Assembly: GCA_963777505.1 (NCBI GenBank)
Contig: CAVZQN010000004.1
Location: forward strand, 832,001-896,000
Reading direction: 5' to 3'
Source: an uncultured bacterium
GTDB lineage: Bacteria > Acidobacteriota > HRBIN11 > JAKEFK01
Length of the DNA stretch: 64,000 bases
Positions 7,121 to 51,403 of the stretch are shown here, one piece after another. Below the pieces are notes generated by a model. That model saw only the letters and a program-made list of their open reading frames with translations. It was not told the origin of the DNA and did not search any database. A program made the position numbers and the translations under genes. The stretch's first letter is position 1. Each line of letters opens with the position of its first letter.

Positions 7121-7750
7121 ATGGGATACATAACGAAATTACTCGGCAGCACTGAAAACATTACGTTCCGAACGCGGCGGCATTTCTTTGTTATTTTCAG
7201 CGCGATACTGAAAGAGTTCTTGATTCTGCTCGCGTGTGCAATCGCGTTTGTATTTGTTCAAAATTGGTATAAGGGTGATCCGTTGTTCATTTACATCGGA
7301 CTCGCCGTGTTAGCGTTCTGGGCACTCATTTCTGCGCTGGTCGATATTATCAAGTGGCAGAATGATGAATTCGTAGTGACAAATCACCGCGTAATTCGAG
7401 TGAGCGGAGTTTTCAGTAAAAATATTCTGGATTCTTCACTCAATAAGATTAATGACGTCATTCTTCAACAAAGCTGGTTGGGCAGAATCTTCAATTATGG
7501 AACGATCAAAATCTTAACTGCGACAGAAGAAGTCATAAATCTTTTGGACCGCATCCAAAACCCGATCGGATTCAAACAGGCAATGCTTGAATCGAAAAGT
7601 TTACTTGAACCGGTGGGCGGGCATGCCGCTTTTGCAGCGCCGCTAACGGCAACACAACTTCTCGAAGAATTGGAGCAGTTGCGCGCACGACAAATGATTT
7701 CTGATGCGGAATATCAAGAAAAGCGGAAAGAAATTTTGAAACGAATGTAA
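7121..7750 (+). CDS. Bacterial PH-domain membrane protein with C-terminal SHOCT domain
   Basis: 2 TM; VVTNHRVI..SG...LGRIFNYGTI; LEELEQLR...ISDAEYQEKRKEIL. Confidence 0.8.
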   Translation: MGYITKLLGSTENITFRTRRHFFVIFSAILKEFLILLACAIAFVFVQNWYKGDPLFIYIGLAVLAFWALISALVDIIKWQNDEFVVTNHRVIRVSGVFSKNILDSSLNKINDVILQQSWLGRIFNYGTIKILTATEEVINLLDRIQNPIGFKQAMLESKSLLEPVGGHAAFAAPLTATQLLEELEQLRARQMISDAEYQEKRKEILKRM

Positions 7751-7759
7751 GAGGCTTCT

Positions 7760-8281
7760 ATGATTCGATTGTTTTTGTTTTTGCTTCTTGTTCCATCATT
7801 CGTCTTTTCTTACACAGTAGTAAGAAAAGATGGAAGACCATTTCATGGAGATTTGATTACCGAAACCTCCGAGCACATTCTTTTGGAAGATAAAATTGGA
7901 ATAAAAGTAAAGTTCAAAAAAGATCAGCTCGATCTCGAAAAAACAAAACAAGCGAATACAGGATCAAAAAAGGAAGATAAGGACTCAGCTTTCGCTCCTA
8001 AACCAGAGCCGGCATACGAAACAAAAACAATTGGTAACGATCAAACAGAAAATACCTGGACAGGCGAAAAAATATCAGTCGATTTCAAAGACATCGACAT
8101 CAAAGATTTCTTCCGATTTATTGCTGAGATTAGCGGAATGAATATGATTCTGGATCCCGCAGTGAAAGGTTCATTAACAATCCGTTTGGTTGATGTTCCA
8201 TGGGATCAAGCACTCGACTTAGTCTGCCGGCAATATGGCTATGGATACCAAATCGAGGGGAATGTTTATTCAGTGAAGTAG
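7760..8281 (+). CDS. Secreted protein with a stand-alone PilQ/secretin N0 (STN-like) domain
   Basis: Signal peptide; GEKISVDFKDIDIKDFFRFIAEISGMN...VKG..TIRL.DVPWDQALD, followed by a stop. Confidence 0.72.
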   Translation: MIRLFLFLLLVPSFVFSYTVVRKDGRPFHGDLITETSEHILLEDKIGIKVKFKKDQLDLEKTKQANTGSKKEDKDSAFAPKPEPAYETKTIGNDQTENTWTGEKISVDFKDIDIKDFFRFIAEISGMNMILDPAVKGSLTIRLVDVPWDQALDLVCRQYGYGYQIEGNVYSVK

Positions 8282-30475: not shown

Positions 30476-31504
30476 CTATGCGGTTGCAGCAGCTTTCGCT
30501 TCTTCTTTTGTCAGGTTCAGTTTCAAGCGAACCTGATCTTCAACTTCTTTTGAAATATCAGAATTATCCCGCAGGAATTTTTTTACATTTTCACGGCCCT
30601 GGCCCAGCCGGGTGTCTTTAAACGAGAACCATGCGCCACTTTTTTCAATGACAGCATGGATTGTTCCGAGATCGAGTAAATCGCCTTCACGCGAAATTCC
30701 TTCGCCATAAATAATGTCAAATTCAGCAATCTTAAAGGGAGGCGCAAGTTTGTTTTTAACAACTTTTACTTTTGTGCGATTTCCCACTGTTTGATCACCT
30801 TCTTTAATCGGCATTTCACGGCGAATTTCCATGCGTACGCTTGAATAAAACTTGAGAGCGCGTCCGCCTGTTGTGACTTCATTGCTTCCAAACATCACAC
30901 CGATTTTTTCGCGAATCTGATTGATGAAAAGCAGACATGTTGCAGATCGAGATACAATTCCTGTCAATTTGCGCATTGCCTGTGACATCAATCGAGCCTG
31001 CAAGCCCATATGTGAATCACCCATTTCACCTTCGAGTTCCGCTTTCGGTACCAGAGCAGCAACTGAATCAATTACAACAAGATCAATTGCTCCACTGCGG
31101 ATTAACATTTCTGCGATTTCAAGCGCTTGTTCTCCGCTGTCCGGTTGCGAAACCAAAAGATTATCGATGTTCACCCCCAGTTTGCGCGCATATTCCGGAT
31201 CTAATGCATGTTCTGCATCAATAAATGCAGCCATCCCTCCGGCTTTTTGCGCTTCGGCGATTATATGCAAAGCAAGAGTCGTCTTGCCAGAAGACTCCGG
31301 CCCAAAAATCTCCACTACACGTCCACGTGGCACACCGCCGATACCCAGAGCCGCATCGATTGAAAGAGCACCAGTTGAGATTGTCGGAATCGAGATCGCT
31401 TCCTTGTCACCAAGTCGCATGATCGAACCTTTTCCGAACTGTTTCTCAATCTGGAGTAGTGCAACTTCAATCGCTTTGCTCTTATCGTTTCTTACTTCAG
31501 CCAT
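30476..31504 (-). CDS. recA: Recombinase RecA
   Basis: [31 protein letters not shown] and KNKLAPPF motifs. Confidence 0.99.
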
Positions 31505-34304: not shown

Positions 34305-34412
34305 GATGTTCCTCCTGAAGCCAGTGAATTCACGTTATATAATGAACTCGGCTCCTAGTTAAGCGTCTATTGATAATCTGATCCCATTATTTCTTTCCTG
34401 CAAGTGAGTACC

Positions 34413-37029
34413 ATGACTCCAGAACGTTGGAAACAAATTGAACAAATCTTTTCCACTGCGGCAGAATTGCCTCAACACGAAAGAGAAAATTTCCTGAAAA
34501 CGACTTGCGCGAATGATTCCGAGTTGCGTTTTGAGGTTGAATCGCTCCTTGCGCAAGATACCGAAACTGGAACGATGATGCAGACCTTGATTTCAAAGGC
34601 TGCAGGGTCTCTTCGCAGTTCAGATCTTACAGGAAAAAGGATCGGTCCCTATCGAATCATATCTCTTACCGGTGAAGGTGGGATGGCGCAAGTTTATAAA
34701 GCTGTCAGGGATGACGATCAATATCAAAAGGTTGTCGCTATAAAAATTTTGCGACAAGACTCGGCGCCATTATTTCTTATTAGCCGATTCTGGTACGAAC
34801 GTCAAATTCTTGCGAACCTCGAACATCCTTGCATCGCTCGTTTCCTTGAAGGGGGGACAACAGAGGAAGGCATTCCGTACTTTGCTATGGAATTCATCGA
34901 AGGACAGCCAATTACAGAATATTGTGATTCGCATAACCTTACAATTCGAAAACGTCTTGAATTTGTTCAGATCCGTTTGCGAAGCAGTTCAGTACGCACA
35001 TAAAAATCTTGTCATACATCGAGATCTCAAACCAAGAAACATTTTAGTAACCGATGAAGGGGTTCCTCGATTATTAGATTTTGGCATTGCTAAATTATTG
35101 AACCCTGAAATTGGATCCGAAGTTCCGAGCGCAACAATCAGTTCAGTACGCATGATGACTCCCGATTACGCCAGCCCTGAACAAGTACGCGGGGAGAAAG
35201 TTACAACTGCTACTGATACTTATTCACTAGGTCTTGTACTTTATGAAATGCTTTCAGGAAAGAGACCTCAGGAAGTTCATACGAATTCATTTGCTGAAAT
35301 TGAACACGTTGTTTGCGAGCAGGAACCGGAACTTCCCAGCGCTGCAATACTTCACCAAAAGTCCAAAATAAATACCAAGAAATTAAGCCGTGAAATTTCA
35401 GGAGAGCTGGATAACATCGTTTCAATGGCGATGCAGAAAAATCCACTTCAACGCTATGCCACTGTGGAGCAATTTGCGGAAGATATTTCAAATTATTTAG
35501 AAGGTCGCACGATTCGAGCAAAAACACCCACACTGAGTTATCGCGTCATAAAGTTCGCGAGACGGCACCGAACTGCAGTAGCTGTGACAGCATTTGTAAT
35601 TCTTACACTTGCAGCAATTGCTGTATTAATGACAATGCAAGCGTCACGGATAGCAAAAGAGAGAGATCGCGCAAGTGAAGTCACGAAATTTCTTGTTGAG
35701 CTTTTTCAAGTTTCCGATCCAGGTGAATCGAAAGGGAATTCTGTCACTGCGCGCGAACTTTTAGACAAGAGTGCTAAGAAAATTGAAAGCGACCTTAAGG
35801 AACAGCCCGAGGTTCAGGCTGCATTGATGGAAACAATGGGTAAGGTGTATGGCAACCTTGGACTCTATAACACCGCGATCCCAATGCTGGAAAAAGCACT
35901 TGAGATTCGCAAACAAACTCTTGGTTCTAAAAGCCCGGAAATTGCAGCAACCATGAATAGTCTTGCTGGAGCTCTTCAGAATGCAGGAAAACATGATAGA
36001 GCATTAAAAATCGGAGGAGAGGCGCTCGCATTGCGTCGAAAACTCTTTGGAAATCAACACCCAAGTGTCGCTGAAAGTTTGAGTGTCACTGGCGGCTCCC
36101 TGTTTGAAAAAGGACAGCTCAAAGAAGCGGGCGCTGTGTTTCGAGAGGCATTGGCAATCCGGGAAAAAGCGTTCGGCCCTGAACACTTACTTGTGGCAAC
36201 GAGCTTATCTCAACTTGGTTTGATTCTTTCGGTAGAAGAGAAGAAAGATGAAGCAGAGCCTTTGTATCGGAGAGCACTCACGATCCGCCGAAAACTTCGT
36301 GGTGCCGATCATCACGAAATTGCAACAAGCCTGAATAACCTTGGGAGAATCCTGCTGGATAAAGGTGATTACATTGGTGCTGAAGAAATGTTTCGGGAAG
36401 CTGTGCAGCTGGATAGAAAAATATTAGGAAATGATCATCCGGATCTTGCTGTAACGCTTTCTAGTCTCGCATGGACATTGAAGGAACAAGAAGAATATTC
36501 AGAATCGGAAGAGCTTTTTCGTGAAGCACTCGCTTTGCGAAAACGGGCTCTTGATTCCCAACATCCAGCGATCGCCAGAAGCTTATACAACTTAGGTTGT
36601 ATTCTTACTGACAAAAAGGATTTCGATCAAGCTGAAACCGTATTGAAAGAAGCTCAGGAGCATTGGAAAAAAACGCTTCCTGAAATTCACGCGAACCATG
36701 CAACTTTGTTAGCCGCGATCGGAAAAGTCCAAATGGGAAAACAAAAACTGAATGAAGCTGAAACCTCATTCAAGCAAGCAATCGAAATGCGGATTCGCAC
36801 ATTGAGCGCCGATCATCCGAGTATCGCAATCGCGAAAGGGACTCTTGGAGAGTGCATGGGCTTGCAGGGCCGTTATAAAGAAGCCGAAGTCTTGCTCCTT
36901 GAATCCTACAATGCTTTGCTTGCCAAGTATCCAAAAAGTCATCCGGAGGCAAAGGAAGCACAATTACGCCTCATTTCGTTTTATACATCCTGGGGAAAAC
37001 CAACCGAAGCCGCCCGATACAAACAGTAA
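34413..37029 (+). CDS. Membrane Ser/Thr protein kinase with C-terminal TPRs (1-nt indel at ~34963)
   Basis: GEGGMA.V, VAIK, HRDLKP.N, DFG, TPDYASPEQ; TM; 42-aa TPRs. Two ORFs join as RLE-LFRSVCEAV. Confidence 0.9.
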
Positions 37030-37057
37030 TCTCTGCGCCTCTGTGGTTGAGTTTAAA

Positions 37058-38944
37058 CTATCCAAGTTCGATCGGGCGTTTATGGAACACGATGCGCCAA
37101 TCCAGAATTTCATCGATCATTTTTTCCGAAATGTCATCCACGATCTGCGCAAGCGATGCAGAATCAACCGTTGATTTATTTCGAAACGTCTCCAGGTCAA
37201 CGTATTTTTCGTCAAGATATTCAGCCATCGCAACATTGTGACGTCCCACCCTTTGAAATTCTCCCTGACTGAGAATTCCTGCAAAGGCAGCACCAAAAGC
37301 AGGACAGACAATGGATAGAAGAGAAAAGGCAGTGCCTAGTTGAGGGAAATCATTCAAATAAGGCCGTATAGAAGTATTGGAGTATACAAATGGAAGGTCT
37401 TTCAATACATGCAATCCACATCCTATTGCAGCCAGGATGAACATTCCGAATGCTAAAAGATGAAGGCGATGATGGATATTTCCATTCCATGTTGCTTTTC
37501 GAAAATGATAGGCTGCTTGATGTTTTGTTTCCTGTTGAATCAAGCCTGCAACTGCCTTGAGATAATCCTGAGTGAGTTTGGTGTTTGGTAAACCAATATG
37601 TTTCGCCACACCGGAAAAATGCCAGTGAACCCAGCTTGAAGAGGGATCTTCATAGTGAGTGTGGATTGGCTCAGGTGCAGCCAATGGAGGAATCCGCCCG
37701 ATTGCTGCGAGAAAACGTGTTTGACGGAGCAACTCGGCGAGCAAACGGTAATCGATCCGTCTGTCATACCATTTGCGTGAACGATCAAAAAGATAAACAA
37801 CGATGATCGAAGCAATTGCAAATAATTCCGCAAATCCAAGCGCATGTTTATGCAGCACAAACGCAAGAAAAGCAAACAGCACAGCCAAAGCGCTCATCAA
37901 GTAGTTCCAAATAAATCCACTGTGATAGAGATTTGTATAATAACCAGCAAGAGCATCTGCAAATTCATAGTGCGGTCTGACTTTTTGTTGTATGTTTTCA
38001 ATAACCTTCGTAAGCTCTTCTCTGGCCGCAGGCGAAATGTTTTCTATGGATTGAATGGATGCGGTCCAATCTTTGGGTTGATCCTTAATTTTCTTCAGGC
38101 TCCTGTCGTAGCCGAAAACCTTATTAAATAATTTCCATAAGACTGCAAAATTCCAACTCGGAATTTTCTCAGAAAAATACATGCTCCGAAGATCAACGAC
38201 TTTTGTTGCATGATGTGCAATCTCATGTGGATCTTCTTCTTTGGGTGGAAGTATTCTTAACGCAACGGCGGCATGAAAATCCGTTTCATCCACATCTTTA
38301 AATATCTTTTCTTTTTCTATCGGATCATTCTTATCTTTCTGTCGTTCATTTTTCGATTTCGGACGGCGATAAACGACGTCATGCGGCTTATCGGGGTTGA
38401 CTTGTACGATAGGAATCGAAAACTTTTCTGCTTCTTTTACGATGTGCCCTGTACCGCCGGCACCACGCGGCTCCTGTCCATTCCAGATTGCAACTAAAAC
38501 GTCGGAATGTCTGAGTACCATTAAACCCGCAGCTTCATATGCTTGTTCTTCTTTTTCAGTAGAACCATCCATTTCAAAAATCACTGGCTCTTCGTCGCCA
38601 GGTTTATTTACGTTTTCACCGTAAATTTTTTCAGCATCCGTTGGGCTTCCAGGTTTAAAAAAAGGGAGAGGGCAGTAAAGCTTATATCCGGACTTTTGTG
38701 CTATCGAGGCTACAATTTGATCTGCTCCGTCAGCAAGTGGGGAAAGGATCTGTAAGCCATGCTCAAGACCATCTTGTTGTTTTGGAAGTGATTGAATAAC
38801 GCCTTTTAGTTTTGTGAAAATTTCATTCAGCTTTTGGTCGATCTGATCACGATCCATCTTTTGCAAGTCTTTCATTCGATGGCCGGTAACTCCGACTCGT
38901 AAGATGAATCCGTGAGACTCAGGTGATGTTCCCTTTGCTGGCAT
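37058..38944 (-). CDS. SLOG (YspA/DUF1273-like) domain fused to two SLATT/DUF4231-like 2TM modules
   Basis: RVGVTGHR, LSPLADGAD, CPLPF, YEAAG, DVLVAIWNG...GGT; TM pairs followed by IDYRLLAELLR and EF.R; C-terminal E..DW. Confidence 0.78.
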   Translation of the reverse strand: MPAKGTSPESHGFILRVGVTGHRMKDLQKMDRDQIDQKLNEIFTKLKGVIQSLPKQQDGLEHGLQILSPLADGADQIVASIAQKSGYKLYCPLPFFKPGSPTDAEKIYGENVNKPGDEEPVIFEMDGSTEKEEQAYEAAGLMVLRHSDVLVAIWNGQEPRGAGGTGHIVKEAEKFSIPIVQVNPDKPHDVVYRRPKSKNERQKDKNDPIEKEKIFKDVDETDFHAAVALRILPPKEEDPHEIAHHATKVVDLRSMYFSEKIPSWNFAVLWKLFNKVFGYDRSLKKIKDQPKDWTASIQSIENISPAAREELTKVIENIQQKVRPHYEFADALAGYYTNLYHSGFIWNYLMSALAVLFAFLAFVLHKHALGFAELFAIASIIVVYLFDRSRKWYDRRIDYRLLAELLRQTRFLAAIGRIPPLAAPEPIHTHYEDPSSSWVHWHFSGVAKHIGLPNTKLTQDYLKAVAGLIQQETKHQAAYHFRKATWNGNIHHRLHLLAFGMFILAAIGCGLHVLKDLPFVYSNTSIRPYLNDFPQLGTAFSLLSIVCPAFGAAFAGILSQGEFQRVGRHNVAMAEYLDEKYVDLETFRNKSTVDSASLAQIVDDISEKMIDEILDWRIVFHKRPIELG

Positions 38945-38966
38945 TTAATTTTCCATGGCTCGAATT

Positions 38967-40427
38967 TTATTTTTTTAGATCATCAGCAAAGATTGCGACG
39001 CGAAAGCCTGTGTCACTGAATCTGCGTGTAAATTCTTTCCGGGTTCGTGAAGAACTACGACAAAATGCTGCGGCACTTGAATAGGAACCGCCGCGAACAA
39101 CACGATATTGCGGATCGCCATGTGTTTCCCATACCGAAGCTCCTGATGGTGATCCTTTGTAGTTTGGATGCCATGGATCCATGCACCATTCTTGCACATT
39201 TCCATGCATATCAAGAAGGCCGAAACCATTAGCTGCATCCGTGCTTCCTGAATCAAATGTTTGTTGTCTTCGTACTCCCGAAAGAGTACGACCCCACGGA
39301 GAAGTGGCATCAAAATTCGCAATGGTGGGAGAAATTGTTTCGCCGAAATGGAATGGTGTGAGGGTTCCTGCGCGGCAAGCAAATTCCCATTCTCCTTCAC
39401 TTGGCAATCGATAAGGCCTGCCAGTACGAGCTGAAAGGCGATCGCAAAATTCGATCGCTTCTTCCCATGTTATTTGTTCAACAGGACGATCTTTTCCACG
39501 GAAAAATGAAGGCTCAGAATTGAGTTCGATCTTCACTTGCGGCCAATCAGCAACCTCAGCCCATTGGGCTTGTGTAATCTCGAGACGCGAAAGAAAAAAC
39601 GAAACAACTTGAACCTGTCCTTGCGGAGTTTCGGCTTGTGCAACTTCTTTAGCTTGCAGAAGCGGTAAACCAACACGCTGTAACTCTTTTACAACCTGAC
39701 TAAACTCTGTTTCCGAAGAACCCATCCAGAAATTCCCACTTGGAAGTTCAATCATTTCCAATGATTCATTGCTTCCTAAGTCTTCCCGAAATAATCTTCC
39801 TTCGCGCTGCATTCCTCCTTTCATTACACCGGAACTATCAATCGTCGCTACTGTGAATTGAAATGTTTCAAAGCGGGCAGACGGAACGATCGCACGATAG
39901 ATTAGAAAGGCAACAACGAATGTGAAAATTGTTAACAAAAGTGCGGCAGGCAAAATCCATTTTGTAGCGGATCGAATTTGCGCAATTGTTTGATTTCCAG
40001 GAATGACCCGCTGAGGCTCTATTCTTTGGCCGGTAAGAAGTGAGTGCACATTTTCAGCAAGACGCAAAAGATGTCTGTGCAACGGTGGAGTCAGCGCGTC
40101 CAACCAGTGCGGAACACTGATGAAATACTCCAGAGATTTTGACATTGGCACATCTTCGATGCGAAAGGGGATGATTGCGAGGCCTTTGTGAACGGCTCGC
40201 TCAACTTCACGCTTCACTTCGTACGAAGAATTCGCATGATTCGAAAAAACAAGAATGAAGATTCGTGCTTGATTGATTGCTTCAATGATCGCTTCACCAC
40301 GATCGATTCCAGGCAAAATGTCACGCGGTGCAATCCAACAGCGGATACCATTTGCTTCCAGCGTTGCACAGGCTGCATCACCGACTGGCTTGTCAGGCGC
40401 GGCGTATGAAATGAAAACGTCATGCAT
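38967..40427 (-). CDS. TIR - TM - FGE-sulfatase (C-type lectin fold) domain protein
   Basis: DVFISY, CWIAPRDI.PG, S..V.REVERA; TM WILPAALLLTIFTFVVAFLIY; F.MGS, RLPSEGEWE, GNV.EW, RGGS, GFRV. Confidence 0.88.
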   Translation of the reverse strand: MHDVFISYAAPDKPVGDAACATLEANGIRCWIAPRDILPGIDRGEAIIEAINQARIFILVFSNHANSSYEVKREVERAVHKGLAIIPFRIEDVPMSKSLEYFISVPHWLDALTPPLHRHLLRLAENVHSLLTGQRIEPQRVIPGNQTIAQIRSATKWILPAALLLTIFTFVVAFLIYRAIVPSARFETFQFTVATIDSSGVMKGGMQREGRLFREDLGSNESLEMIELPSGNFWMGSSETEFSQVVKELQRVGLPLLQAKEVAQAETPQGQVQVVSFFLSRLEITQAQWAEVADWPQVKIELNSEPSFFRGKDRPVEQITWEEAIEFCDRLSARTGRPYRLPSEGEWEFACRAGTLTPFHFGETISPTIANFDATSPWGRTLSGVRRQQTFDSGSTDAANGFGLLDMHGNVQEWCMDPWHPNYKGSPSGASVWETHGDPQYRVVRGGSYSSAAAFCRSSSRTRKEFTRRFSDTGFRVAIFADDLKK

Positions 40428-40440
40428 AATTAGATTGAAC

Positions 40441-40546
40441 GGAGCGCAGGCTTCCAGCCTGCATTACGGGCCGCGGACTTCCAGTCCGCCAATTCCGCAG
40501 GCAAGATGCCTGCGGCCCATAATGCGGGCAAAGATGCCCGCGCTCC
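40441..40546. repeat. Nested REP doublets (GGAGCGC.../GGGCCGC... family)
   Basis: GGAGCGCAGGCTTCCAGCCTGC [GGGCCGCGGACTTCCAGTCCGC...GCAGGCAAGATGCCTGCGGCCC] GCGGGCAAAGATGCCCGCGCTCC. Confidence 0.78.
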
Positions 40547-40554
40547 GTATAAGC

Positions 40555-41943
40555 TCAGAAAATTTTCTTGAATTTGTCTTTTAACTTTCGGAAAAGATTT
40601 TTGCTTTCTTTTTCTGCTAACTGTTTCAACTTTTTCTCTGTCCAGGATTTCATACCAGGATCCAATTTTCCGCAGCGATCAAAATCATTTTTTGCTAATG
40701 GCAAATTTCCCTGGGACAGATAAATTGCTCCGCGATTACAATATGGCTCGGCAAAATTGGGTTCGAGCTTGATCGCCAATGTATAGTCCGTAACCGCTTG
40801 TGTAATATTTTTTAACTCCTGGTTTGACACCCCGCGAGAATTTGCCGCTTTCGCATGCTTCGGGTTTAATCGCAGCGCTTGCGTGAAATCGGAAACAGCA
40901 TCTCTATGTTTATCCAGGCTCTGATTGGTTAAGCCACGCTGATAAAATACCTCCGCCTGATTTGGATCGTATCGCAGTGCCTCGTTTAAGTCTTTTAATG
41001 CGAGCGCTTCGTTCCCTTGCTTCTTATATACCTGTGCGCGATCGCTGTAGGCTGCTGCAAAATCCGGTTTCAATCCAATTGCTTTACTAAAATCCACAAT
41101 GGCTTGATCGTAATTGCCTGAAATGCTGTAAGCCTGACCGCGATGATGATACGCTTCGGCATTTTGAGGATCCAACTGCAGTACTTTGTTGTAATCGATG
41201 ATCGCATTGGGATAGCGATCGAGTTTGTAATACGCTTGACCGCGGTAATGATAAGCATCTTCGAAATTCGGATCCTGTTGAATTGCTTTGTCAAATGATT
41301 CAATCGCTTTATCGTATTTTCCTTCCTCAAATTCTCTGACGCCTTGCGAGTAATATGGATTCTCTTGAGGTTTCGGGCGTTCAACAACTCCTTTGCTTCG
41401 CAGCAGATTCATCACATAAGGCAAACCTTTGATCAAACCGAATGTAGCAGTGAAGGCAATGAAGAGCGTGAGTATGACACTAGCAGCAATTGCTTTGCCG
41501 CTAAATTTCTTGCTTCCGAAAAGTTTTGGTTGTGATGTGCCGCGATTCAAGAGTTGCGATACTGTGTCTCCTAACAACTCAAGATGGCTTTCCTGGGGTC
41601 CCGAATATGCATCGAGATATTGCAAAGAGCCGATGTAATATTCGAGAGCCTTATCCGCAACTACATTTTGAACGCGATAAGGAAGGACCGTTACGCCTTT
41701 GTTGATTGCACGTTCTACTTCACGATGAATTTGACGCGATGCATTCGCGTGTGTAGACATTACGAGAACCATCACCGATGCTTCATTGATGGCTTCGATA
41801 ATTGCAGCGCTCCAATCTGCGCCAGGTGTGATATTGCGAGGAGCTATCCAGCAATTGATCCCGCGAGCTTCCAGAGTGACACAGATTGCGTCTGCAGCCG
41901 CGCGATCGACAGACGAATAGCTTATAAATACTTCGTGAGCCAT
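40555..41943 (-). CDS. TIR - TM - TPR protein
   Basis: EVFISYS, CWIAPRNI.PG.DW, S..I.REVERA; TM AIAASVILTLFIAFTATFGLI; about seven 34-aa TPRs. Confidence 0.88.
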   Translation of the reverse strand: MAHEVFISYSSVDRAAADAICVTLEARGINCWIAPRNITPGADWSAAIIEAINEASVMVLVMSTHANASRQIHREVERAINKGVTVLPYRVQNVVADKALEYYIGSLQYLDAYSGPQESHLELLGDTVSQLLNRGTSQPKLFGSKKFSGKAIAASVILTLFIAFTATFGLIKGLPYVMNLLRSKGVVERPKPQENPYYSQGVREFEEGKYDKAIESFDKAIQQDPNFEDAYHYRGQAYYKLDRYPNAIIDYNKVLQLDPQNAEAYHHRGQAYSISGNYDQAIVDFSKAIGLKPDFAAAYSDRAQVYKKQGNEALALKDLNEALRYDPNQAEVFYQRGLTNQSLDKHRDAVSDFTQALRLNPKHAKAANSRGVSNQELKNITQAVTDYTLAIKLEPNFAEPYCNRGAIYLSQGNLPLAKNDFDRCGKLDPGMKSWTEKKLKQLAEKESKNLFRKLKDKFKKIF

Positions 41944-42005
41944 ACCCCTATCTGTCCATTCTAAGTATTACACAAGTTAACCGCAGAGACGCCGAGCCCA
42001 CAGAG

Positions 42006-43400
42006 TCATTTAATCTTGCGCGGTTCGGTTAGATTCGCAGGATCGAACAGCGTGGCGAATTCTTCATCGCTAAGAAGTTTGCGTTCCTTCACAATTTCTT
42101 TGATTGATTTCCCCGTTTGTTGTGATTCTTTGACAACTTCTGCAGCTTTCAGATACCCAATAAAAGGGTTGAGTACTGTTGCTAGACCCAATGTTCGGTC
42201 TGCATACCGATTGCAGGCTTCAGCGTTAGCCGTAATCCCTGTAACGCATTTTTCGGTAAATGCGCAAATACCGTTTGTAAGAATCGTCATCGATTCAAAC
42301 AGATTATGTGCAATAACAGGCATCATCACATTCAATTCAAGCTGTCCTGCTTGTGCAGCCATCATTATCGTTGTGTCATTTCCAATCACATGAAATGAAA
42401 TCATGTTCAACATTTCAGCCATTACAGGATTTACTTTGCCTGGCATAATCGATGATCCTGGCTGCACTGCCGGTAACGTAATTTCATCTAACCCAGTATT
42501 CGGTCCTGATGCGAGCAATCGAAAATCATTTGCGATTCGCGTCAGCTCGATTGCAAGGTTGCGGAGCGACGCCGATAATTCTGTAAATGAAGACATGCTT
42601 TGCATTGCTTCAAACATGTTTTCGGCAGGACGCAAGTTGAAGCCTGTGAGTCCACTCAAGTAGGAAACAATTACGCCACGATAATCCGGATGCGTATTTA
42701 CGCCGGTTCCTACTGCGCTTCCTCCGATGCCAAGTTCTTCCAATGAAAGCTCCGAATGAATAATCTGAAAACGCATTTTTTGGATGGCGCGCGCATAGCC
42801 GCTAAATTCCTGTCCTAATCGTATCGGTACCGCATCTTGCAAATGAGTTCGGCCTGATTTCAAGACTGGATCAAATTCTTGTGCTTTTTCGCCAAGTGCA
42901 TTCTCAAGCTTTTCAAGCTGATTGAATAGACCCGGCAGAAGCGCTAACGCTGCTAAACGCATGGAGGTTGGAATGACATCATTCGTAGATTGCCCCATAT
43001 TTACATGATCGTTCGGACTGATGAGTTGATGATCACCTTTCTTTCCACCTAAAACTTCAGCCGCGCGATTTGCGATCACTTCATTGACATTCATGTGAAA
43101 CGATGTGCCGGCGCCGGCTTGAAAAACATCAACGACAAAGTTGTCGTTGTATTCCCCAGCCGCAACCTGCGTAGCAACATCTATGATTGCTTTTGCTTTA
43201 TGCTCATCAAGATAACCAAGCTGCATATTTGTTTTTGCAGCAGCTACCTTAATTAGAGCCGCTGCACGGATCAGCTCTGGATGTGCTTTTTGCCGGCTGA
43301 TTGGAAAATTGCGGACGGCACGCGCAGTCTGCACGCCATAATATGCCTCCTCCGGAACTTCCATCGTGCCTAGTGAATCCTTTTCTACCCTCGTTCCCAT
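42006..43400 (-). CDS. aspA: Aspartate ammonia-lyase / class II fumarase
   Basis: YYGVQT.RA, GAGTS..MN.NEV, GRTHLQDA, GSSIMPGKVNP, GQLELNV; GGAGGAG RBS. fumC is not excluded. Confidence 0.8.
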   Translation of the reverse strand: MGTRVEKDSLGTMEVPEEAYYGVQTARAVRNFPISRQKAHPELIRAAALIKVAAAKTNMQLGYLDEHKAKAIIDVATQVAAGEYNDNFVVDVFQAGAGTSFHMNVNEVIANRAAEVLGGKKGDHQLISPNDHVNMGQSTNDVIPTSMRLAALALLPGLFNQLEKLENALGEKAQEFDPVLKSGRTHLQDAVPIRLGQEFSGYARAIQKMRFQIIHSELSLEELGIGGSAVGTGVNTHPDYRGVIVSYLSGLTGFNLRPAENMFEAMQSMSSFTELSASLRNLAIELTRIANDFRLLASGPNTGLDEITLPAVQPGSSIMPGKVNPVMAEMLNMISFHVIGNDTTIMMAAQAGQLELNVMMPVIAHNLFESMTILTNGICAFTEKCVTGITANAEACNRYADRTLGLATVLNPFIGYLKAAEVVKESQQTGKSIKEIVKERKLLSDEEFATLFDPANLTEPRKIK

Positions 43401-43472
43401 GACTCCTCCATACGGTATGTGTGAAACATACAACATGTATTATAAAATCCATTAACCACAAAGGCGCAAAGT

Positions 43473-48727: not shown

Positions 48728-51403
48728 TTAATGCGAAAGTAAATAGATATCGGCTTGCATGGCTGGCTGCGCAAAAATAATTGTGGAAAGATCACGCGTA
48801 AAATCGTAACCATTCCCTTCAAAGGATAACGGAAAAGAGAAGGGCACCTTCAATGCGACCTCCGGAGATCCAATCAATTTTCCATTTTTCCAATTTGCAC
48901 GATAAAAAAGGATTTCATTATTATCACTTTCTACTGCATAAAGAAATGATTGATCATCCGGCGCGATCCGCACCATCATCGTAGGAACATCTCGAATTAA
49001 CAATATCGATTCTTTAGTCTCCAGAATTAACGAAGAAATTCCTGTCTTCTCACCTTCAGTTGCGCGGCCAATTAGATATTTACCGTCACTGGTTATATCG
49101 CCTACAACAAAGCCATTTTGAGTTACAAGTTCCATGTCTGAAGTTTCTGGTGAAACTTTCCAAATTGTACGGTCTGGATTTTGTCCTGTCCGAACGGACA
49201 TATAGATTGACTTACCATCTGACGACCAGATCATATTACTGATGTTGCCTTCCATCGGTTTTAATGCTTTGACTTTTCGGCCGTCCGCACTACCAACAAA
49301 TGGTTTATTTATATCCAGAAAAACAAAACGAGAGGAATCTCTTGTCCAGTCTCCGGTACCGATACCGGTTCCTTCACCGATTCGAATCCCCCTTGAACTT
49401 CCATCTGTGGGCGAGATCCAAAGCTGATCATTTGAATTACCAGAACCGAATTTTAAAAACATGATCATTTTGCCATCAGGGGAAATCACCGGCTGAGATG
49501 AAACTTCTTCGATGATTCTTTTGACTTCTCCTGTTTTCGAGTCATATCGAACCAATGCGCCGGATCCTCTGCCATTCACATAATAAATTCCACCGCCACG
49601 ATCGGGCATCGGCTCAAGATCAGGGCCTGGTCCGAAGGTAACCTGCGTGAACTTTTTCTTATCCAGATCAAACTTCCAAATGTTTTCGATTCCATTTTCT
49701 CGCTTACGTAAAAGAATGCTGTGATCTGGCTTATACCAAGCAAAATCTCCAGAAAAGTCGTTTATAACAGCTAAATCTTCAAAAATGCGATCATTTAGAT
49801 TCACTTTATAAATATGAGCTTCAGTCGCCGGATTCATTCGAGCGCGAACCAATAGTTGATTTGGATCAGTAAAAGGCAGGATTGTGGTTGGGACTATGTT
49901 TTCTTTAAACTCAAATACGCTCTGTTCATTAATGCCCGTCTTTTCGCTTCGATAGATTACGTTTCTACCTGCATTTTTGAAGTAATAAAGATATTTACCA
50001 TCGGAAGATGGTTCGACATTTAGGCCGGCCACAACAAACTCTGGTTTGCCGCCAAGGGTCGGTACTGCCCAGGTTTCCTCCCGGCCGAAATCCCTGCGGT
50101 AATAGATTTTCGTTCCATCTGCTGAAAAACTTGAAACAAGTTTACTCCCGACATCATTCGTGAGCTGAAGCGGTTCACCGCCTGTTGTAAGCATTACGAA
50201 CACCTGAAGTATGTTGTCTACTGGTGCACTGAATGCAATTGCATGTCCATCAGGAGAAATTCTGGATTCGATAATTTCCTTATTCCAATTGCTGATCTGA
50301 CGCACCTTTGTCGGAAGTTTTTCTTCCGGTTCCGGCCAAAATTTATATGCAGCAAAGCCTGCTGCTAAAAGAACAGCTAAAAGCCCTGCGAAGAGAAACT
50401 TCTTTTTGTTTGAAGCCGGTGGCGCGGTTCCTGTCGTTGACACTTCCGCTGGCCGAGCAATTGTTTGGGAACTTGCAACCGGCACAGAGACGGAAGCAGA
50501 ACGGCCTGAATCGATTTCCCGTTTCAACCGTTTCAAGTCAGCGCGCATTTCCGACGCAGTCTGGCATCGTACATCGCGATCTTTTTCCAGAGCTTTGCGG
50601 ATGATACGATCCAATTCAGGATGCGTTTCAGGATTTAATCTTGTTGGAGGGATCGGATCTTTATTCAGGATCGCTTCAAACACAACGGCTGAAGTTGGAC
50701 CGCTGAAAGCCTGTCGTCTTGTGATCATTTCGTATAGCACTGCCCCGAATGAAAACAGATCGGTGCGTGTGTCAATGTCTGCTCCGCGTGCCTGTTCGGG
50801 AGACATGTATGCAATTGTTCCGATTGTCATTCCTGGACTTGTCAGCGATTCAGGATTTTCTTGCGTTTGCATCGCAGATGCTTCGCCTTGCAGCGTACGG
50901 GATGGAAGTAATTTCGCGAGACCAAAATCAAGCACCTTTGCGTGACCACGTGAAGTCACAAAAAGATTTGCAGGTTTAATGTCACGATGAATTATGTTCT
51001 TGCTGTGAGCAGCATCCAGAGCATCTGAAATCTGAATGGCAAGTTCGACAATTCCTTCAGTCGAAAATTGTTTTGCTTCAATGCCATGCTTTAATGTCAT
51101 CCCTTCAAGCAATTCCATGACGATGTAATGGACGAATGGTCCGTCATTTGATCCGTTTTCACTGAGATGATCCGCGCCGATGTCGTAAATTGTGCAGATA
51201 TTGGGATGATTCAATGCAGATGCGGAACGTGCTTCGCGTTGAAGCCGTTCCAGGGCTTGTTTGTCATTGGCAAGTTCTTGCGGCAGAAATTTTAGCGCAA
51301 CTCCACGGCCAAGGCGCACATCCTCAGCGCGATAGACAACCCCCATTCCTCCGCCGCCTAGCCGCTCAATGATTCGGTAGTGCGAAATTGTCTTACCAAT
51401 CAT
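48728..51403 (-). CDS. Membrane Ser/Thr kinase with TolB-like beta-propeller
   Basis: [29 protein letters not shown]; TM; SPDG repeats. Confidence 0.92.

Follow-up and report, generated by a model that had tools for sequence, protein, structure and literature searches.

The window, i.e. the whole 64,000-nucleotide stretch of DNA that was analysed, contains a locus of three genes, all on the minus strand according to the ORF list. They encode a TIR-TM-TPR protein of 462 aa (40555-41943), a TIR-TM-FGE-sulfatase-domain protein of 486 aa (38967-40427) and a 628-aa protein (37058-38944) that combines a SLOG domain with SLATT-like transmembrane hairpins, here termed SLOG-SLATT. The two TIR genes are separated by a 127-bp spacer (40428-40554), and only 22 bp (38945-38966) lie between the TIR-FGE and SLOG-SLATT genes; a first-pass annotation of this DNA had reported the same co-directional arrangement and gaps, and the ORF coordinates agree with it. 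It was also right in placing a REP element within the larger gap. This is a REP-like palindrome of ~110 nt (core ~40439-40550, no strand assigned), identified by its inverted repeat, its copies elsewhere in the genome and its fold: the element is genome-wide, with 48 matches in its own genome, ~20 of them near full length with 79-93% identity, and its fold energy (-82.4 kcal/mol, z = -9.15) was equalled by none of 200 shuffled sequences. The "repeat arms" that were said to bound the locus at ~37031 and ~41979 are not supported, as a repeat search found no repeat of at least 12 nt joining the two sites, which merely hold two complementary 8-nt words whose order is not inverted. No defence island was seen around the locus, its flanks being occupied by housekeeping genes (recA, aspA, ADH and transporters); in the same-genus genome the cassette is syntenic, lying near recA as well, and the neighbourhoods of related loci are heterogeneous. 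Elsewhere in the window are Ser/Thr kinases, one fused to TPR repeats (34404-37029) and one to a TolB-like propeller (48731-51403).

Each of the two TIR proteins displays a single hydrophobic segment after the TIR domain in a Kyte-Doolittle scan. In the TIR-TM-TPR protein, delineated by ORF, Pfam and hydropathy, the TIR module spans residues ~1-135 (DNA 41539-41943), the TM segment residues 152-170 (41434-41490) and the TPR repeats residues ~193-446 (40606-41367); Pfam TIR_2 (PF13676) matches residues 5-116 with 80.7 bits against a cut-off of 28, and several TPR families are matched, TPR_1 with 171.9 bits. In the second protein, delineated in the same way, the TIR module comprises residues 1-135 (DNA 40023-40427; TIR_2 at residues 4-100, 71 bits against 28), the TM segment residues 158-176 (39900-39956) and the FGE-sulfatase domain residues 224-478 (38994-39758; PF03781, 148.4 bits against 23.3). 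Pfam and hydropathy together thus recover every domain previously named in these proteins, namely TIR, TM, TPR and FGE fold. The best NCBIfam names for the second protein, PvdO (116 bits against 500) and GldK (65 against 350), are far off their equivalog cut-offs, and its FGE-sulfatase domain probably serves as a binding module; the protein is 75% identical to its same-genus ortholog (locus L002). The predicted TM topology derives from a crude hydropathy scan, and the charges flanking the TM segments favor neither orientation. A candidate catalytic glutamate, E75 in the first protein and E74 in the second, sits in an S-x-[WQF]-[IV]-x-x-E motif, which we take to correspond to the canonical S-x-W-x-x-x-E motif of catalytic TIRs. 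Across an alignment of 53 TIR domains the E75 column is Glu in 44, and it is invariant in a close clade of 13 members. In the entire 5.23-Mb genome there are two TIR_2 matches, which are exactly the two genes of this locus.

The SLOG-SLATT gene, present in one copy in its genome, was delineated by ORF, AlphaFold2 modelling, fold search and hydropathy. When the AlphaFold2 model (pLDDT 91.6) was searched against all 48,161 chains, the top 15 rows for residues 13-232 (DNA 38249-38908) were all SLOG-superfamily structures. The closest was YpsA (2nx2; Z 14.6, rmsd 3.4 over 156 residues), followed by DprA (3uqz; Z 12.2), ShosA (11.1) and LOGs (8-9), with TRPM2 at Z 8.0 (8sr7, rank 14) and 7.7 (7aov) and the 3'cADPR-bound SLOG domain of BcThsA at Z 7.6 (rank 19). 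Foldseek gave a probability of 1.00 for 2nx2, 8zva, 1rcu, 6y01 and 4ljl, though with the whole model as query no E-value reached 1e-3. The first-pass annotation had assigned a SLOG fold to the protein at 37-39 kb and named any other fold as a point that would speak against its reading; the YpsA match upholds the assignment. At the level of sequence profiles, residues 1-260 yielded no Pfam SLOG-family or DUF1273 match even at E <= 1, and a RefSeq "DUF1273 domain-containing protein" was matched by tblastn with E 2e-8; neither the SLOG domain nor the system as a whole is recognised by any Pfam, NCBIfam or PADLOC model. The domain has two motifs, G73-x-D75 (G73-A74-D75) and G163-G164-T165, and among 81 homologs G73 is invariant while D75, G163, G164 and T165 are each at least 90% conserved. 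According to PMC6459960, the YpsA clade is marked by a GxD/E signature that is predicted to bind substrate, and because G73-A74-D75 is conserved the signature can be said to be present here.

The rest of the protein contains four TM helices, arranged as two hairpins in both the model and the hydropathy profile. The first, a SLATT/DUF4231-like module at residues 321-414 (DNA 37703-37984), scores below cut-off in the window protein itself (NCBIfam SLATT_1 23.9 bits against 41; DUF4231 16.3 against 24.7). Four full-length homologs exceed the DUF4231 cut-off of 24.7 (P0014 25.7, P0021 25.9, P0060 31.5 and P0100 27.7 bits) and another, P0055, exceeds that of SLATT_1 (31.5 against 26.3). The second 2TM helical module, at residues 459-621 (DNA 37082-37570), reaches only 14.4 bits with Pfam SLATT_1 in the window protein and 21.2 bits (model positions 8-114 of 122) in homolog P0060, the cut-off being 26.3, and hhalign relates the two halves with a probability of just 0.2%. 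Of the SLOG-(2TM)x2 architecture proposed earlier, the four TM helices hold; the first pair looks SLATT-like through its homologs, and the second pair remains below the SLATT_1 cut-off. The fusion defines a large family, with 5195 cluster representatives (50% identity clusters) at E <= 1e-30, whose database names are just "hypothetical" or "DUF4231".

A survey of the neighbourhoods of SLOG-SLATT homologs for TIR partners, as suggested along with the first-pass annotation, recovered a TIR match no more than 8 kb away in 45 of the 80 genome loci, of which 43 came from one search and two, L043 and L060, from others; Pfam TIR_2 was borne out in 49 of the 51 neighbouring proteins behind those 43. 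If only loci flanked by 5 kb or more on each side are considered, the count is 28 of 49, L060 included, leaving 21 of these, and 35 of the full 80, with no TIR within 8 kb. Many of the TIR/SLOG-SLATT pairs have a gap of less than 130 bp. All the TIR_2 genes of a genome adjoin its single SLOG-SLATT gene in four of six genomes examined, i.e. the present one (2/2), G001 (2/2), G003 (1/1) and G005 (1/1); in G002 one of two does so and in G004 two of eight, and each of the five other genomes has exactly one full-length SLOG-SLATT gene. The independent RefSeq annotation of the Caballeronia plasmid pSBC2-4 lists, in this order, DUF4231, TIR and WD40 proteins; among the partner proteins of SLOG-SLATT homologs, CHASE2, PD40, SPOR and DUF4189 domains are seen as well. 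The same SLOG subfamily further occurs without SLATT in TIR-caspase-SLOG(-TIR) operons of a Rhizobium plasmid and of B. subtilis pBS72, the SLOG domains of which are detected by our HMM with E 1e-30 and 1e-28, respectively.

Seen from the TIR side adjacency is weak, as just 10 of the 80 TIR-clade loci taken from metagenomes have a SLOG-SLATT profile match. Of these 80, 18 extend 3 kb or more to each side: one has SLOG-SLATT, in five others the partner is an RCK-RyR channel or RyR-TPR-S, and the remaining 12 have solely heterogeneous, housekeeping-like neighbours; what recurs most often next to a clade TIR is a further TIR (nine loci). A TM segment follows the TIR module in 52 of 56 complete proteins of the clade, and their C-terminal parts comprise FGE-sulfatase (9), TPR (9), Sel1 (4), Ank (3), WD40 (2) and other domains (5), with none recognised in 24. 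Of 201 genomes searched in the phylum, 12 match the SLOG profile, 11 the TIR clade and 9 both, against 0.66 expected; counted by genus, 6 of 135 have both (0.41 expected), though such counts treat related genomes as independent and thereby overstate significance. In seven of the nine co-occurring genomes the genes lie on different contigs or 1.4 Mb apart. Because the TIR clade and the SLOG subfamily thus co-occur unlinked, operon-based searches may undercount such systems. Full-length SLOG-SLATT homologs are present in 1 of 40 relatives and in ~4 of 200 genomes examined across the phylum; the next-closest ones belong to other phyla, and the gene is also found on mobilisable plasmids beside IS elements. 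Taken as sequence evidence, these patterns support a functional link of the TIR clade to the SLOG subfamily: the earlier suggestion that the TIRs feed a SLOG effector is favored by 45 of 80 loci, four of six genomes and nine co-occurring genomes against 0.66 expected, with the weak reverse adjacency (10/80) counting against it.

Given these observations, the reading that we lean towards, with slightly better than even confidence in the whole chain from TIR through signal and SLOG to pore, is that the locus encodes a Thoeris-like module of unusual layout that uses an NAD+-derived second messenger. It builds on what the sequences themselves display: the folds of the domains, conservation of the catalytic Glu and of the SLOG pocket motifs, and linkage in the genome. 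Both TIR proteins would be single-pass membrane proteins with a catalytically competent TIR domain in the cytoplasm and the TPR or FGE/C-type-lectin-like ligand-binding domain across the membrane. A cue perceived by these sensor domains would cause the TIR domains to assemble and to convert NAD+ to an ADP-ribose-derived signal, probably a cADPR isomer, as might be expected from the established biochemistry of TIRs and Thoeris. The 628-aa protein would then bind this signal through its YpsA-like SLOG domain on the cytoplasmic side, and its SLATT-type 2TM hairpins might in turn open or assemble into a membrane-permeabilising pore, resulting in growth arrest or death; this last step is modelled on what is reported or predicted for SLOG in ThsA and for SLATT in CBASS and in Thoeris of type VII. 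The two TIR proteins may be alternative sensors for the one shared effector.

The same chain could alternatively operate outside immunity, with the TIR-generated messenger and SLOG-gated membrane protein reporting on the envelope or on what lies outside the cytoplasm (neighbours or predators, for example, damage to the envelope or a small ligand), in a manner comparable to the receptor Ser/Thr kinases of this genome that bear the same kinds of sensor domains. Such a role would accord with the prevalence in the TIR clade of TM segments (52/56) and C-terminal binding repeats or domains, with the CHASE2, PD40, SPOR and DUF4189 domains of SLOG-SLATT partners, with the kinases fused to TPR and the TolB-like propeller in the window itself, and with the housekeeping surroundings, the synteny near recA within the genus and the one full-length SLOG-SLATT gene in each of the five other genomes. 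We nevertheless consider it unlikely: patchy distribution, homologs in other phyla, and association with mobilisable plasmids and IS elements form a pattern typical of conflict systems, characterised TIR-SLATT systems are described as anti-phage (bioRxiv 10.64898/2025.12.03.692087), and immune receptors, too, characteristically join variable sensors to a constant signalling module.

Other readings dispense with the messenger. The TIR-TM-sensor proteins might be self-contained sensor-effectors that deplete NAD+ once activated, with SLOG-SLATT being independent or auxiliary; stand-alone TIRs of this kind exist and were excluded by Yirmiya et al. as known NAD+ depleters (bioRxiv 10.64898/2025.12.03.692087). 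The 12 of 18 long-flank TIR-clade loci with no recognisable effector nearby, the 35 of 80 SLOG-SLATT loci with no TIR, and the nine loci where a clade TIR has a further TIR as its most recurrent neighbour would all fit. This is made improbable by the genome-wide co-occurrence even of unlinked genes (9 genomes against 0.66), by the location of every TIR_2 gene beside a SLOG-SLATT gene in four of six genomes, by the mere 22 bp between the TIR-FGE and effector genes, by the conservation of the SLOG pocket motifs and by the presence of the same SLOG subfamily in TIR-caspase operons. Finally, the TIRs could be adaptors that bind SLOG directly at the membrane in a pre-assembled receptor-channel complex with no diffusible messenger, as all three are predicted membrane proteins and TIR and SLOG share a Rossmann-like fold class (PMC9503650, PMC7159879). 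We regard this as very improbable, since the catalytic Glu is conserved and an adaptor-only TIR needs none; moreover, the TIR clade and SLOG genes are often unlinked, as a diffusible signal would allow, though binding is still compatible with this.

Three elements seen in this analysis appear to be undescribed: the effector family in which SLOG and SLATT are fused, the clade of receptor-like TIR-TM-sensor proteins and the channel partner with an RyR domain that recurs beside them. A wider, tentative reading, which we hold to be rather unlikely, would posit a widespread TIR clade with the layout of Toll-like receptors, i.e. an extracytoplasmic ligand-binding domain, a single TM helix and a cytoplasmic TIR, that signals inwards via an NAD+-derived messenger. 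The dedicated receiver would be the YpsA-like SLOG subfamily, fused or coupled to interchangeable outputs in the form of a SLATT pore, an RCK-RyR-domain ion channel or a caspase, and as sensors and receiver are often encoded far apart they would constitute a dispersed network of many sensors to one receiver rather than an operon. If true, TIR signalling in bacteria would be connected, through the recurrent RyR-domain partners, with the pairing of cADPR and the ryanodine receptor in animals, the channel partner offering a testable bridge between the two. To our knowledge, the characterised Thoeris TIRs are soluble and sense phage components inside the cell. A constant membrane-tethered TIR with changing, presumably outward binding domains would suggest either another trigger for TIR immunity or a non-immune use of the messenger, and the ligand of the SLOG-SLATT family, once defined, would add a receptor class for NAD-derived signalling.

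Among known systems, type VII Thoeris has been validated as a TIR protein (ThsB) with the SLATT effector ThsH and canonical cADPR as signal in a 2025 preprint (Yirmiya et al., bioRxiv 10.64898/2025.12.03.692087), which also cites type III Thoeris as combining several TIRs with a SLOG-domain effector. Because type VII is validated and type III cited there, the first-pass claim that the locus departs from known Thoeris types is partly out of date: TIR with SLATT and multiple TIRs with SLOG are both known, and what stands as undescribed are the three elements named above. As at our locus, a TIR gene of type VII adjoins a membrane effector with SLATT-type 2TM helices, and a TIR-made ADPR derivative is expected to lead to membrane breach. 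ThsH is described in the preprint as SLATT-annotated, with a ligand pocket modelled between SLATT protomers; compared with this description, the locus effector has a separate YpsA-like SLOG domain (~220 aa) before the SLATT hairpin and a second 2TM module after it, and its TIRs differ from type VII as described in their predicted membrane anchors and large C-terminal sensor domains. A ThsH-type effector match was found neither in PADLOC 2.0.0 (2023) nor in NCBIfam.

Types I (ThsB with the SIR2-SLOG protein ThsA) and III share with the locus a SLOG domain as presumed receiver of the TIR signal. Type III resembles it further in having several TIR genes per effector and a SLOG of the DprA/YpsA kind rather than STALD, its effector being described in a review as bearing an SMF/DprA-type SLOG (PMC13276650). 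Unlike ThsA, the locus effector has no SIR2 domain by Pfam and its SLOG is structurally nearer to YpsA (Z 14.6) than to BcThsA (7.6); unlike either type, as far as the second-hand description of the type III effector goes, its output would be a SLATT membrane module. PADLOC returned weak ThsB TIR matches (13-17 bits), and the type III models of NCBIfam a single match, ThcB4 at 22.2 bits against a cut-off of 220, confined to the TIR domain, and none on the effector. In the PADLOC check proposed at the outset, no PADLOC model recognised the locus as a system.

In CBASS, 2TM/SLATT effectors are the killing output of a nucleotide second-messenger system (bioRxiv 10.64898/2025.12.03.692087); at this locus a SLOG domain has the sensor position that SAVED or other domains hold in CBASS, a TIR enzyme stands upstream instead of a CD-NTase, and PADLOC found no CBASS effector at the locus. 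The YpsA/DprA clade (2nx2, 3uqz) provides the best structural matches to the SLOG domain and shares its GxD/E signature, but YpsA is soluble and related to cell division and DprA processes DNA, whereas the locus SLOG is fused to four TM helices. A cytoplasmic SLOG-fold N-domain (MHR1/2) ahead of a TM pore module is also seen in TRPM2-type channels, TRPM2 being a cation channel with structures containing ADPR-derived ligands; its membrane part, a 6-TM TRP channel, is unrelated to the two 2TM SLATT-like hairpins, and the resemblance is an analogy of layout rather than demonstrated orthology. The generic hallmark of Thoeris, TIR genes genomically coupled to an effector with a ligand-sensing domain, is found at this locus, which by its sequence looks like an apparently undescribed variant of Thoeris immune signalling with probably outward-facing sensor domains.

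The three genes at the core of the locus all lie on the minus strand and encode a TIR-TPR protein of 462 aa (40555-41943), a TIR-FGE-sulfatase protein of 486 aa (38967-40427) and a SLOG-SLATT protein of 628 aa (37058-38944). The intergenic gaps of 127 bp and 22 bp, like the co-directional arrangement reported in the first-pass annotation, agree with the ORF coordinates. Pfam searches recovered a TIR_2 domain at residues 5-116 of the 462-aa protein (80.7 bits against a cut-off of 28) together with a block of TPR repeats, and in the 486-aa protein a TIR_2 domain at 4-100 (71 bits) and an FGE-sulfatase domain at 224-478 (148.4 bits). Each has a single strongly hydrophobic segment directly after the TIR module (152-170 and 158-176, respectively), in keeping with the TIR-TM-TPR and TIR-TM-FGE architectures initially assigned to them. 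A scan for promoters and terminators at the locus returned fewer sites than were seen in shuffled sequences.

The 628-aa protein had no Pfam match above threshold and no PADLOC match, and its sole NCBIfam match was to SLATT_1 (SLATT: SMODS and SLOG-associating 2TM domain) at residues 321-414, with 23.9 bits, below the cut-off of 41. Nothing significant emerged when its sequence, or a profile of 81 full-length homologs, was compared by sequence search with PDB chains. An AlphaFold2 model based on the alignment of these homologs (mean pLDDT 91.6, pTM 0.91) shows residues 13-232 as an alpha/beta domain; beyond it come long helices, among them four TM segments that form two hairpins. In a fold search against 48,161 PDB representatives the top 15 rows all belonged to the SLOG superfamily and aligned on residues 13-232. 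Matches to this domain included YpsA (2nx2; Z 14.6, rmsd 3.4 over 156 residues), DprA (3uqz; Z 12.2), ShosA (8zva; Z 11.1), TM1055 (1rcu; Z 10.7), a molybdenum cofactor carrier (2iz5; Z 10.4), LOG enzymes (Z 8-9) and TRPM2 (8sr7; Z 8.0), with the BcThsA SLOG domain bound to 3'cADPR (7uxs; Z 7.6) at rank 19. With the whole model as query Foldseek returned no match at E ≤ 1e-3, yet gave a probability of 1.00 for the same SLOG structures. Within the SLOG domain G73 is invariant in the alignment, and D75, G163, G164 and T165 are nearly so. Brzozowski et al. (PMC6459960) describe GxD/E as the signature through which members of the YpsA clade are predicted to bind their substrate, and G73-x-D75 corresponds to this signature. 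When subsets of the alignment were run against Pfam, several full-length homologs exceeded the DUF4231 or SLATT_1 gathering scores over the first hairpin; the second hairpin gave only sub-threshold SLATT_1 scores, and comparison of the two 2TM halves with hhalign detected no profile-profile similarity between them. Hence, the data support a SLOG domain followed by a SLATT domain and a second 2TM module, so that of the SLOG-(2TM)x2 layout first proposed the SLOG fold and the two hairpins stand, the second hairpin being at most a tentative SLATT domain.

At E ≤ 1e-3 this large family numbers 15,004 cluster representatives; tightening the threshold to E ≤ 1e-10 leaves 10,386, and to E ≤ 1e-30 leaves 5,195. 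Its members, where named at all, are labelled 'hypothetical protein' or 'DUF4231'. Seven long representatives showed at most a DUF4231 domain, one of them having no match to it, and, as weak evidence on fusion, a search for TIR domains joined to SLOG-SLATT homologs found no longer homologs.

We scanned one genome per species, obtaining 526 relatives, and kept 80 loci. The TIR partners that had been anticipated in the neighborhoods of SLOG-SLATT homologs were indeed found within 8 kb at 45 of these 80 loci: an iterated TIR profile detected them in the 8-kb flanks of 43, with TIR_2 confirmed by Pfam in 49 of 51 flank proteins, and L043 and L060 also bear a TIR; at 35 loci there is none within 8 kb. 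Restricting the count to the 49 loci whose flanks both span 5 kb or more leaves 28 with a TIR, and in many of the pairs the gap is below 130 bp. TIR_2 matches in the genome containing the window (5.23 Mb, 95.9% complete) are limited to the two window TIRs, and it has one SLOG-SLATT gene. In five other whole genomes, each with a single SLOG-SLATT gene, the share of TIR_2 genes adjoining it is 2 of 2, 1 of 2, 1 of 1, 2 of 8 and 1 of 1, and on a mobilisable Caballeronia plasmid the RefSeq annotation places a DUF4231 protein before a TIR protein and a WD40 protein. The linkage is, as judged from gene neighborhoods on the effector side, real. DUF4062 replaces or accompanies TIR_2 beside some homologs: of the proteins at L009:2739-5942 and L003:9934-12222, one combines DUF4062 with TPRs (1068 aa) and the other with TIR_2 (763 aa). 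Loci of the Sphingomicrobium or Sphingomonas type (L065, L068, L069, L071-L073, L075, L079 and L081) have a small ORF (140-223 aa; ~7230-7980 in most) that matches nothing in Pfam, situated between a ~720-aa TIR-TPR gene and the SLOG-SLATT homolog.

Both window TIRs belong to a tight clade, whose ~135-residue module shows 46-71% identity over 80 metagenome loci and has E74 among its invariant residues. The SLOG-SLATT profile matched at only 10 of these 80 loci, most of the contigs being short. Flanks of 3 kb or more on each side are available at 18 loci: SLOG-SLATT is found at one of them, a 2TM-RCK(TrkA_N)-RyR channel-like or RyR-TPR-S protein at five more, and heterogeneous housekeeping-like neighbors alone at 12; adjacency is weak when judged from the TIR side. 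The clade itself is receptor-like in its predicted layout. All 56 complete metagenome members contain TIR_2, and in 52 a hydrophobic segment follows the TIR module (Kyte-Doolittle score ≥2.0 in 41 of the 52). Their C-terminal parts comprise FGE-sulfatase (9), TPR (9), Sel1 (4), ankyrin (3), WD40 (2) and DUF4189, DUF4185, YARHG, DUF6242 and BNR-like domains (1 each), with 24 unrecognized. The TIR proteins that accompany SLOG-SLATT homologs in genomes extend this set by CHASE2, PD40, SPOR, STAND NTPases, SIR2 and GAF-cyclase. Given that the NAD+ used by the TIR is cytoplasmic, that the SLOG domain lies on the same side as both hairpin ends and that there is a single TM segment, the C-terminal domains should face the periplasm; the charges flanking the TM segments do not decide the orientation.

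Many related loci have a protein of ~600-720 aa directly adjoining the SLOG-SLATT gene, the clade TIR gene or both; it combines a pair of N-terminal TM helices with a TrkA_N (RCK) domain and, often, a RyR domain (genome loci L009, L029, L030, L033-L036, L038-L040, L044 and L077; metagenome loci L108, L121, L127, L128, L130, L139 and L145; also L172:3265-5001). Its domains suggest a 2TM ion channel gated by a ligand, and the RyR domain draws attention since animal ryanodine receptors are linked to cADPR. Adjoining clade TIR genes at L125:4591-6873 and L146:4485-6749 are proteins of 755-761 aa with a RyR domain at the N-terminus and a TPR-S ('sensor') domain; one of the proteins has a C-terminal nucleotide cyclase domain.

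Co-occurrence was assessed in the genome of the window and an even sample of 200 others from the phylum. The SLOG-SLATT profile matched 12 of these 201 (E ≤ 1e-30) and the TIR-clade profile 11 (E ≤ 1e-25; one of them, G040, flagged as unpublished, is a TIR-only genome). Both were present in nine genomes versus 0.66 expected, and in 6 of 135 genera versus 0.41 expected, P-values for such counts being overstated because related genomes are not independent. In seven of the nine the two genes lie on separate contigs or at a distance of 1.4 Mb, and this co-occurrence resolves much of the asymmetry in adjacency between the effector and TIR sides. The SLOG partner takes several forms: the 4-TM SLOG-SLATT form is found in the genome of the window (G000), G006, G142 and G144, and in G191, which has no TIR-clade match; G033 and G134 have a soluble 337-aa SLOG protein adjoining a gene with a partial channel-profile match; and G010, G011 and G014 have a stand-alone SLOG of 184-199 aa. 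The same subfamily is stand-alone in TIR-caspase-SLOG(-TIR) operons of a Rhizobium plasmid and B. subtilis pBS72, whose SLOG proteins match the profile of the window N-terminal domain (E 1e-30 and 1e-28). These varied forms and operons indicate that the conserved pair seems to be the TIR clade and the SLOG subfamily, with SLATT one of several outputs. The operons encode TIR, caspase, stand-alone SLOG and a further TIR on R. binae plasmid p4 (L083, 4620-6989) and TIR, caspase and stand-alone SLOG on pBS72 (L084, 4644-6498); one of the two SLOGs is annotated DUF1273, and the operons may be caspase-type Thoeris systems in which SLOG is a component of its own. A protein that resembles SLOG residues 16-186 and is annotated 'DprA-like' or 'ssDNA binding' is found in 20 Microbacterium phages (records H16-H30, e.g. 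MN183284.1 2671-3132; 27-28% identity, best E 1e-6). According to Iyer et al. (PMC9503650), viral YpsA-like SLOGs are proposed possibly to degrade cADPR-type host signals.

The 127-bp spacer (40428-40554) contains a palindromic element of ~110 nt, and its 48 matches in the genome and very stable fold (z = -9.15) confirm the nested REP element noted at first. The element is REP- or MITE-like, with full and half copies at 47 other places on several contigs. The repeat arms claimed to bound the locus at ~37031 and ~41979 had to be rejected: a repeat search of the window found none of ≥12 nt joining them, and the likeness between the two ends amounts to two complementary 8-nt words whose order is not inverted and which are unique as 22-25-mers. 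The window contains 9 copies of the 8-mer CTCTGYGG where 2.6 are expected, and the doubled 8-mer occurs at five places in the genome versus 0 in controls; sites are at 37039-37046 and 41981-42005 of the window and at C1:46030, C4:1141664, C6:459473 and C8:279140 elsewhere in the genome. A Ser/Thr kinase-TM-TPR gene (34404-37029, plus strand) converges on the SLOG-SLATT gene; it is split into overlapping frames, 34404-35003 and 34810-37029, each with part of the Pkinase domain, the split reflecting a frameshift in a pseudogene or else an error of sequencing. Also in the window, on the minus strand at 48731-51403, is another Ser/Thr kinase of receptor type (891 aa); its TolB-like beta-propeller region belongs to the class of sensor domains borne by TIR partners elsewhere.

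On balance, we lean towards a Thoeris-like module, in which the two membrane TIR sensors would generate an NAD-derived messenger, and the SLOG domain would read it and gate the SLATT membrane effector. The same chain might instead serve non-immune outside-in signaling, which we consider unlikely. Bearing on this choice, the flanking genes are housekeeping ones (recA, 30479-31504; aspartate ammonia-lyase, 42009-43436; alcohol dehydrogenase, chromate transporter and an ADOP-family permease) and the locus is not within a defence island. The ADOP family would point to an organism of the Acidobacteriota type. A same-genus genome has the identical order TIR-TPR, TIR-FGE, SLOG-SLATT, likewise adjoining recA (identity 49% for the effector and 75% for TIR-FGE). 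Apart from this genome, a search of the remaining 39 relatives yielded no full-length homolog, and in the phylum sample one occurs only in G142, G144 and G191. As the next-best full-length matches also come from other phyla, the distribution is patchy, which is usual for accessory or conflict genes. That the TIRs are self-contained NAD-depleting sensors with SLOG-SLATT as an unrelated neighbor seems quite doubtful; the sparse adjacency seen from the TIR side speaks for it and the pairing across genomes against it. A direct TIR-SLOG complex is highly improbable in our estimate. When residues 1-240, holding the SLOG domain, were co-folded with residues 1-140 of the TIR module, the score was 0.01, without a verdict. 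Overall, the genes, domains and REP element described in the first-pass annotation largely hold, the arms excepted, and its messenger-effector interpretation is partly supported, through effector-side linkage and co-occurrence.

Targeted searches of literature accessible in part found no description of a fused YpsA-like-SLOG and SLATT effector, of a membrane-anchored TIR clade with sensor-type C-terminal domains, of TIR-clade/SLOG co-occurrence at the genome level when unlinked, or of the RyR-domain partners, nor any work combining TPR-S, RyR and TIR; the words SLATT, SLOG and DUF4231 are absent from the text of PMC13069673. The SLOG-SLATT effector or the membrane TIRs may be among the 29 putative effector types of Yirmiya et al. 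(bioRxiv, December 2025; 10.64898/2025.12.03.692087), who validated Thoeris types V-XI. The TPR domain of the type VIII effector ThsI was, according to these authors, earlier predicted to act in TIR signaling, and is presumably the Pfam TPR-S domain. Type X uses an ion channel, type VII pairs a TIR with the SLATT-annotated effector ThsH, triggered by canonical cADPR, and type III, as cited there, combines several TIRs with a SLOG-domain effector, this SLOG being of the SMF/DprA and not the STALD kind according to a review (PMC13276650). Iyer et al. (PMC9503650) report TIR-SLATT neighborhoods in Firmicute phages and YpsA-like SLOG domains that sense cADPR variants. With these TIR-SLATT and TIR-SLOG precedents the general logic is already known, and the departure from known Thoeris types that was claimed for the locus no longer holds as worded, type VII uniting TIR with SLATT and type III TIRs with SLOG as far as these sources describe them.
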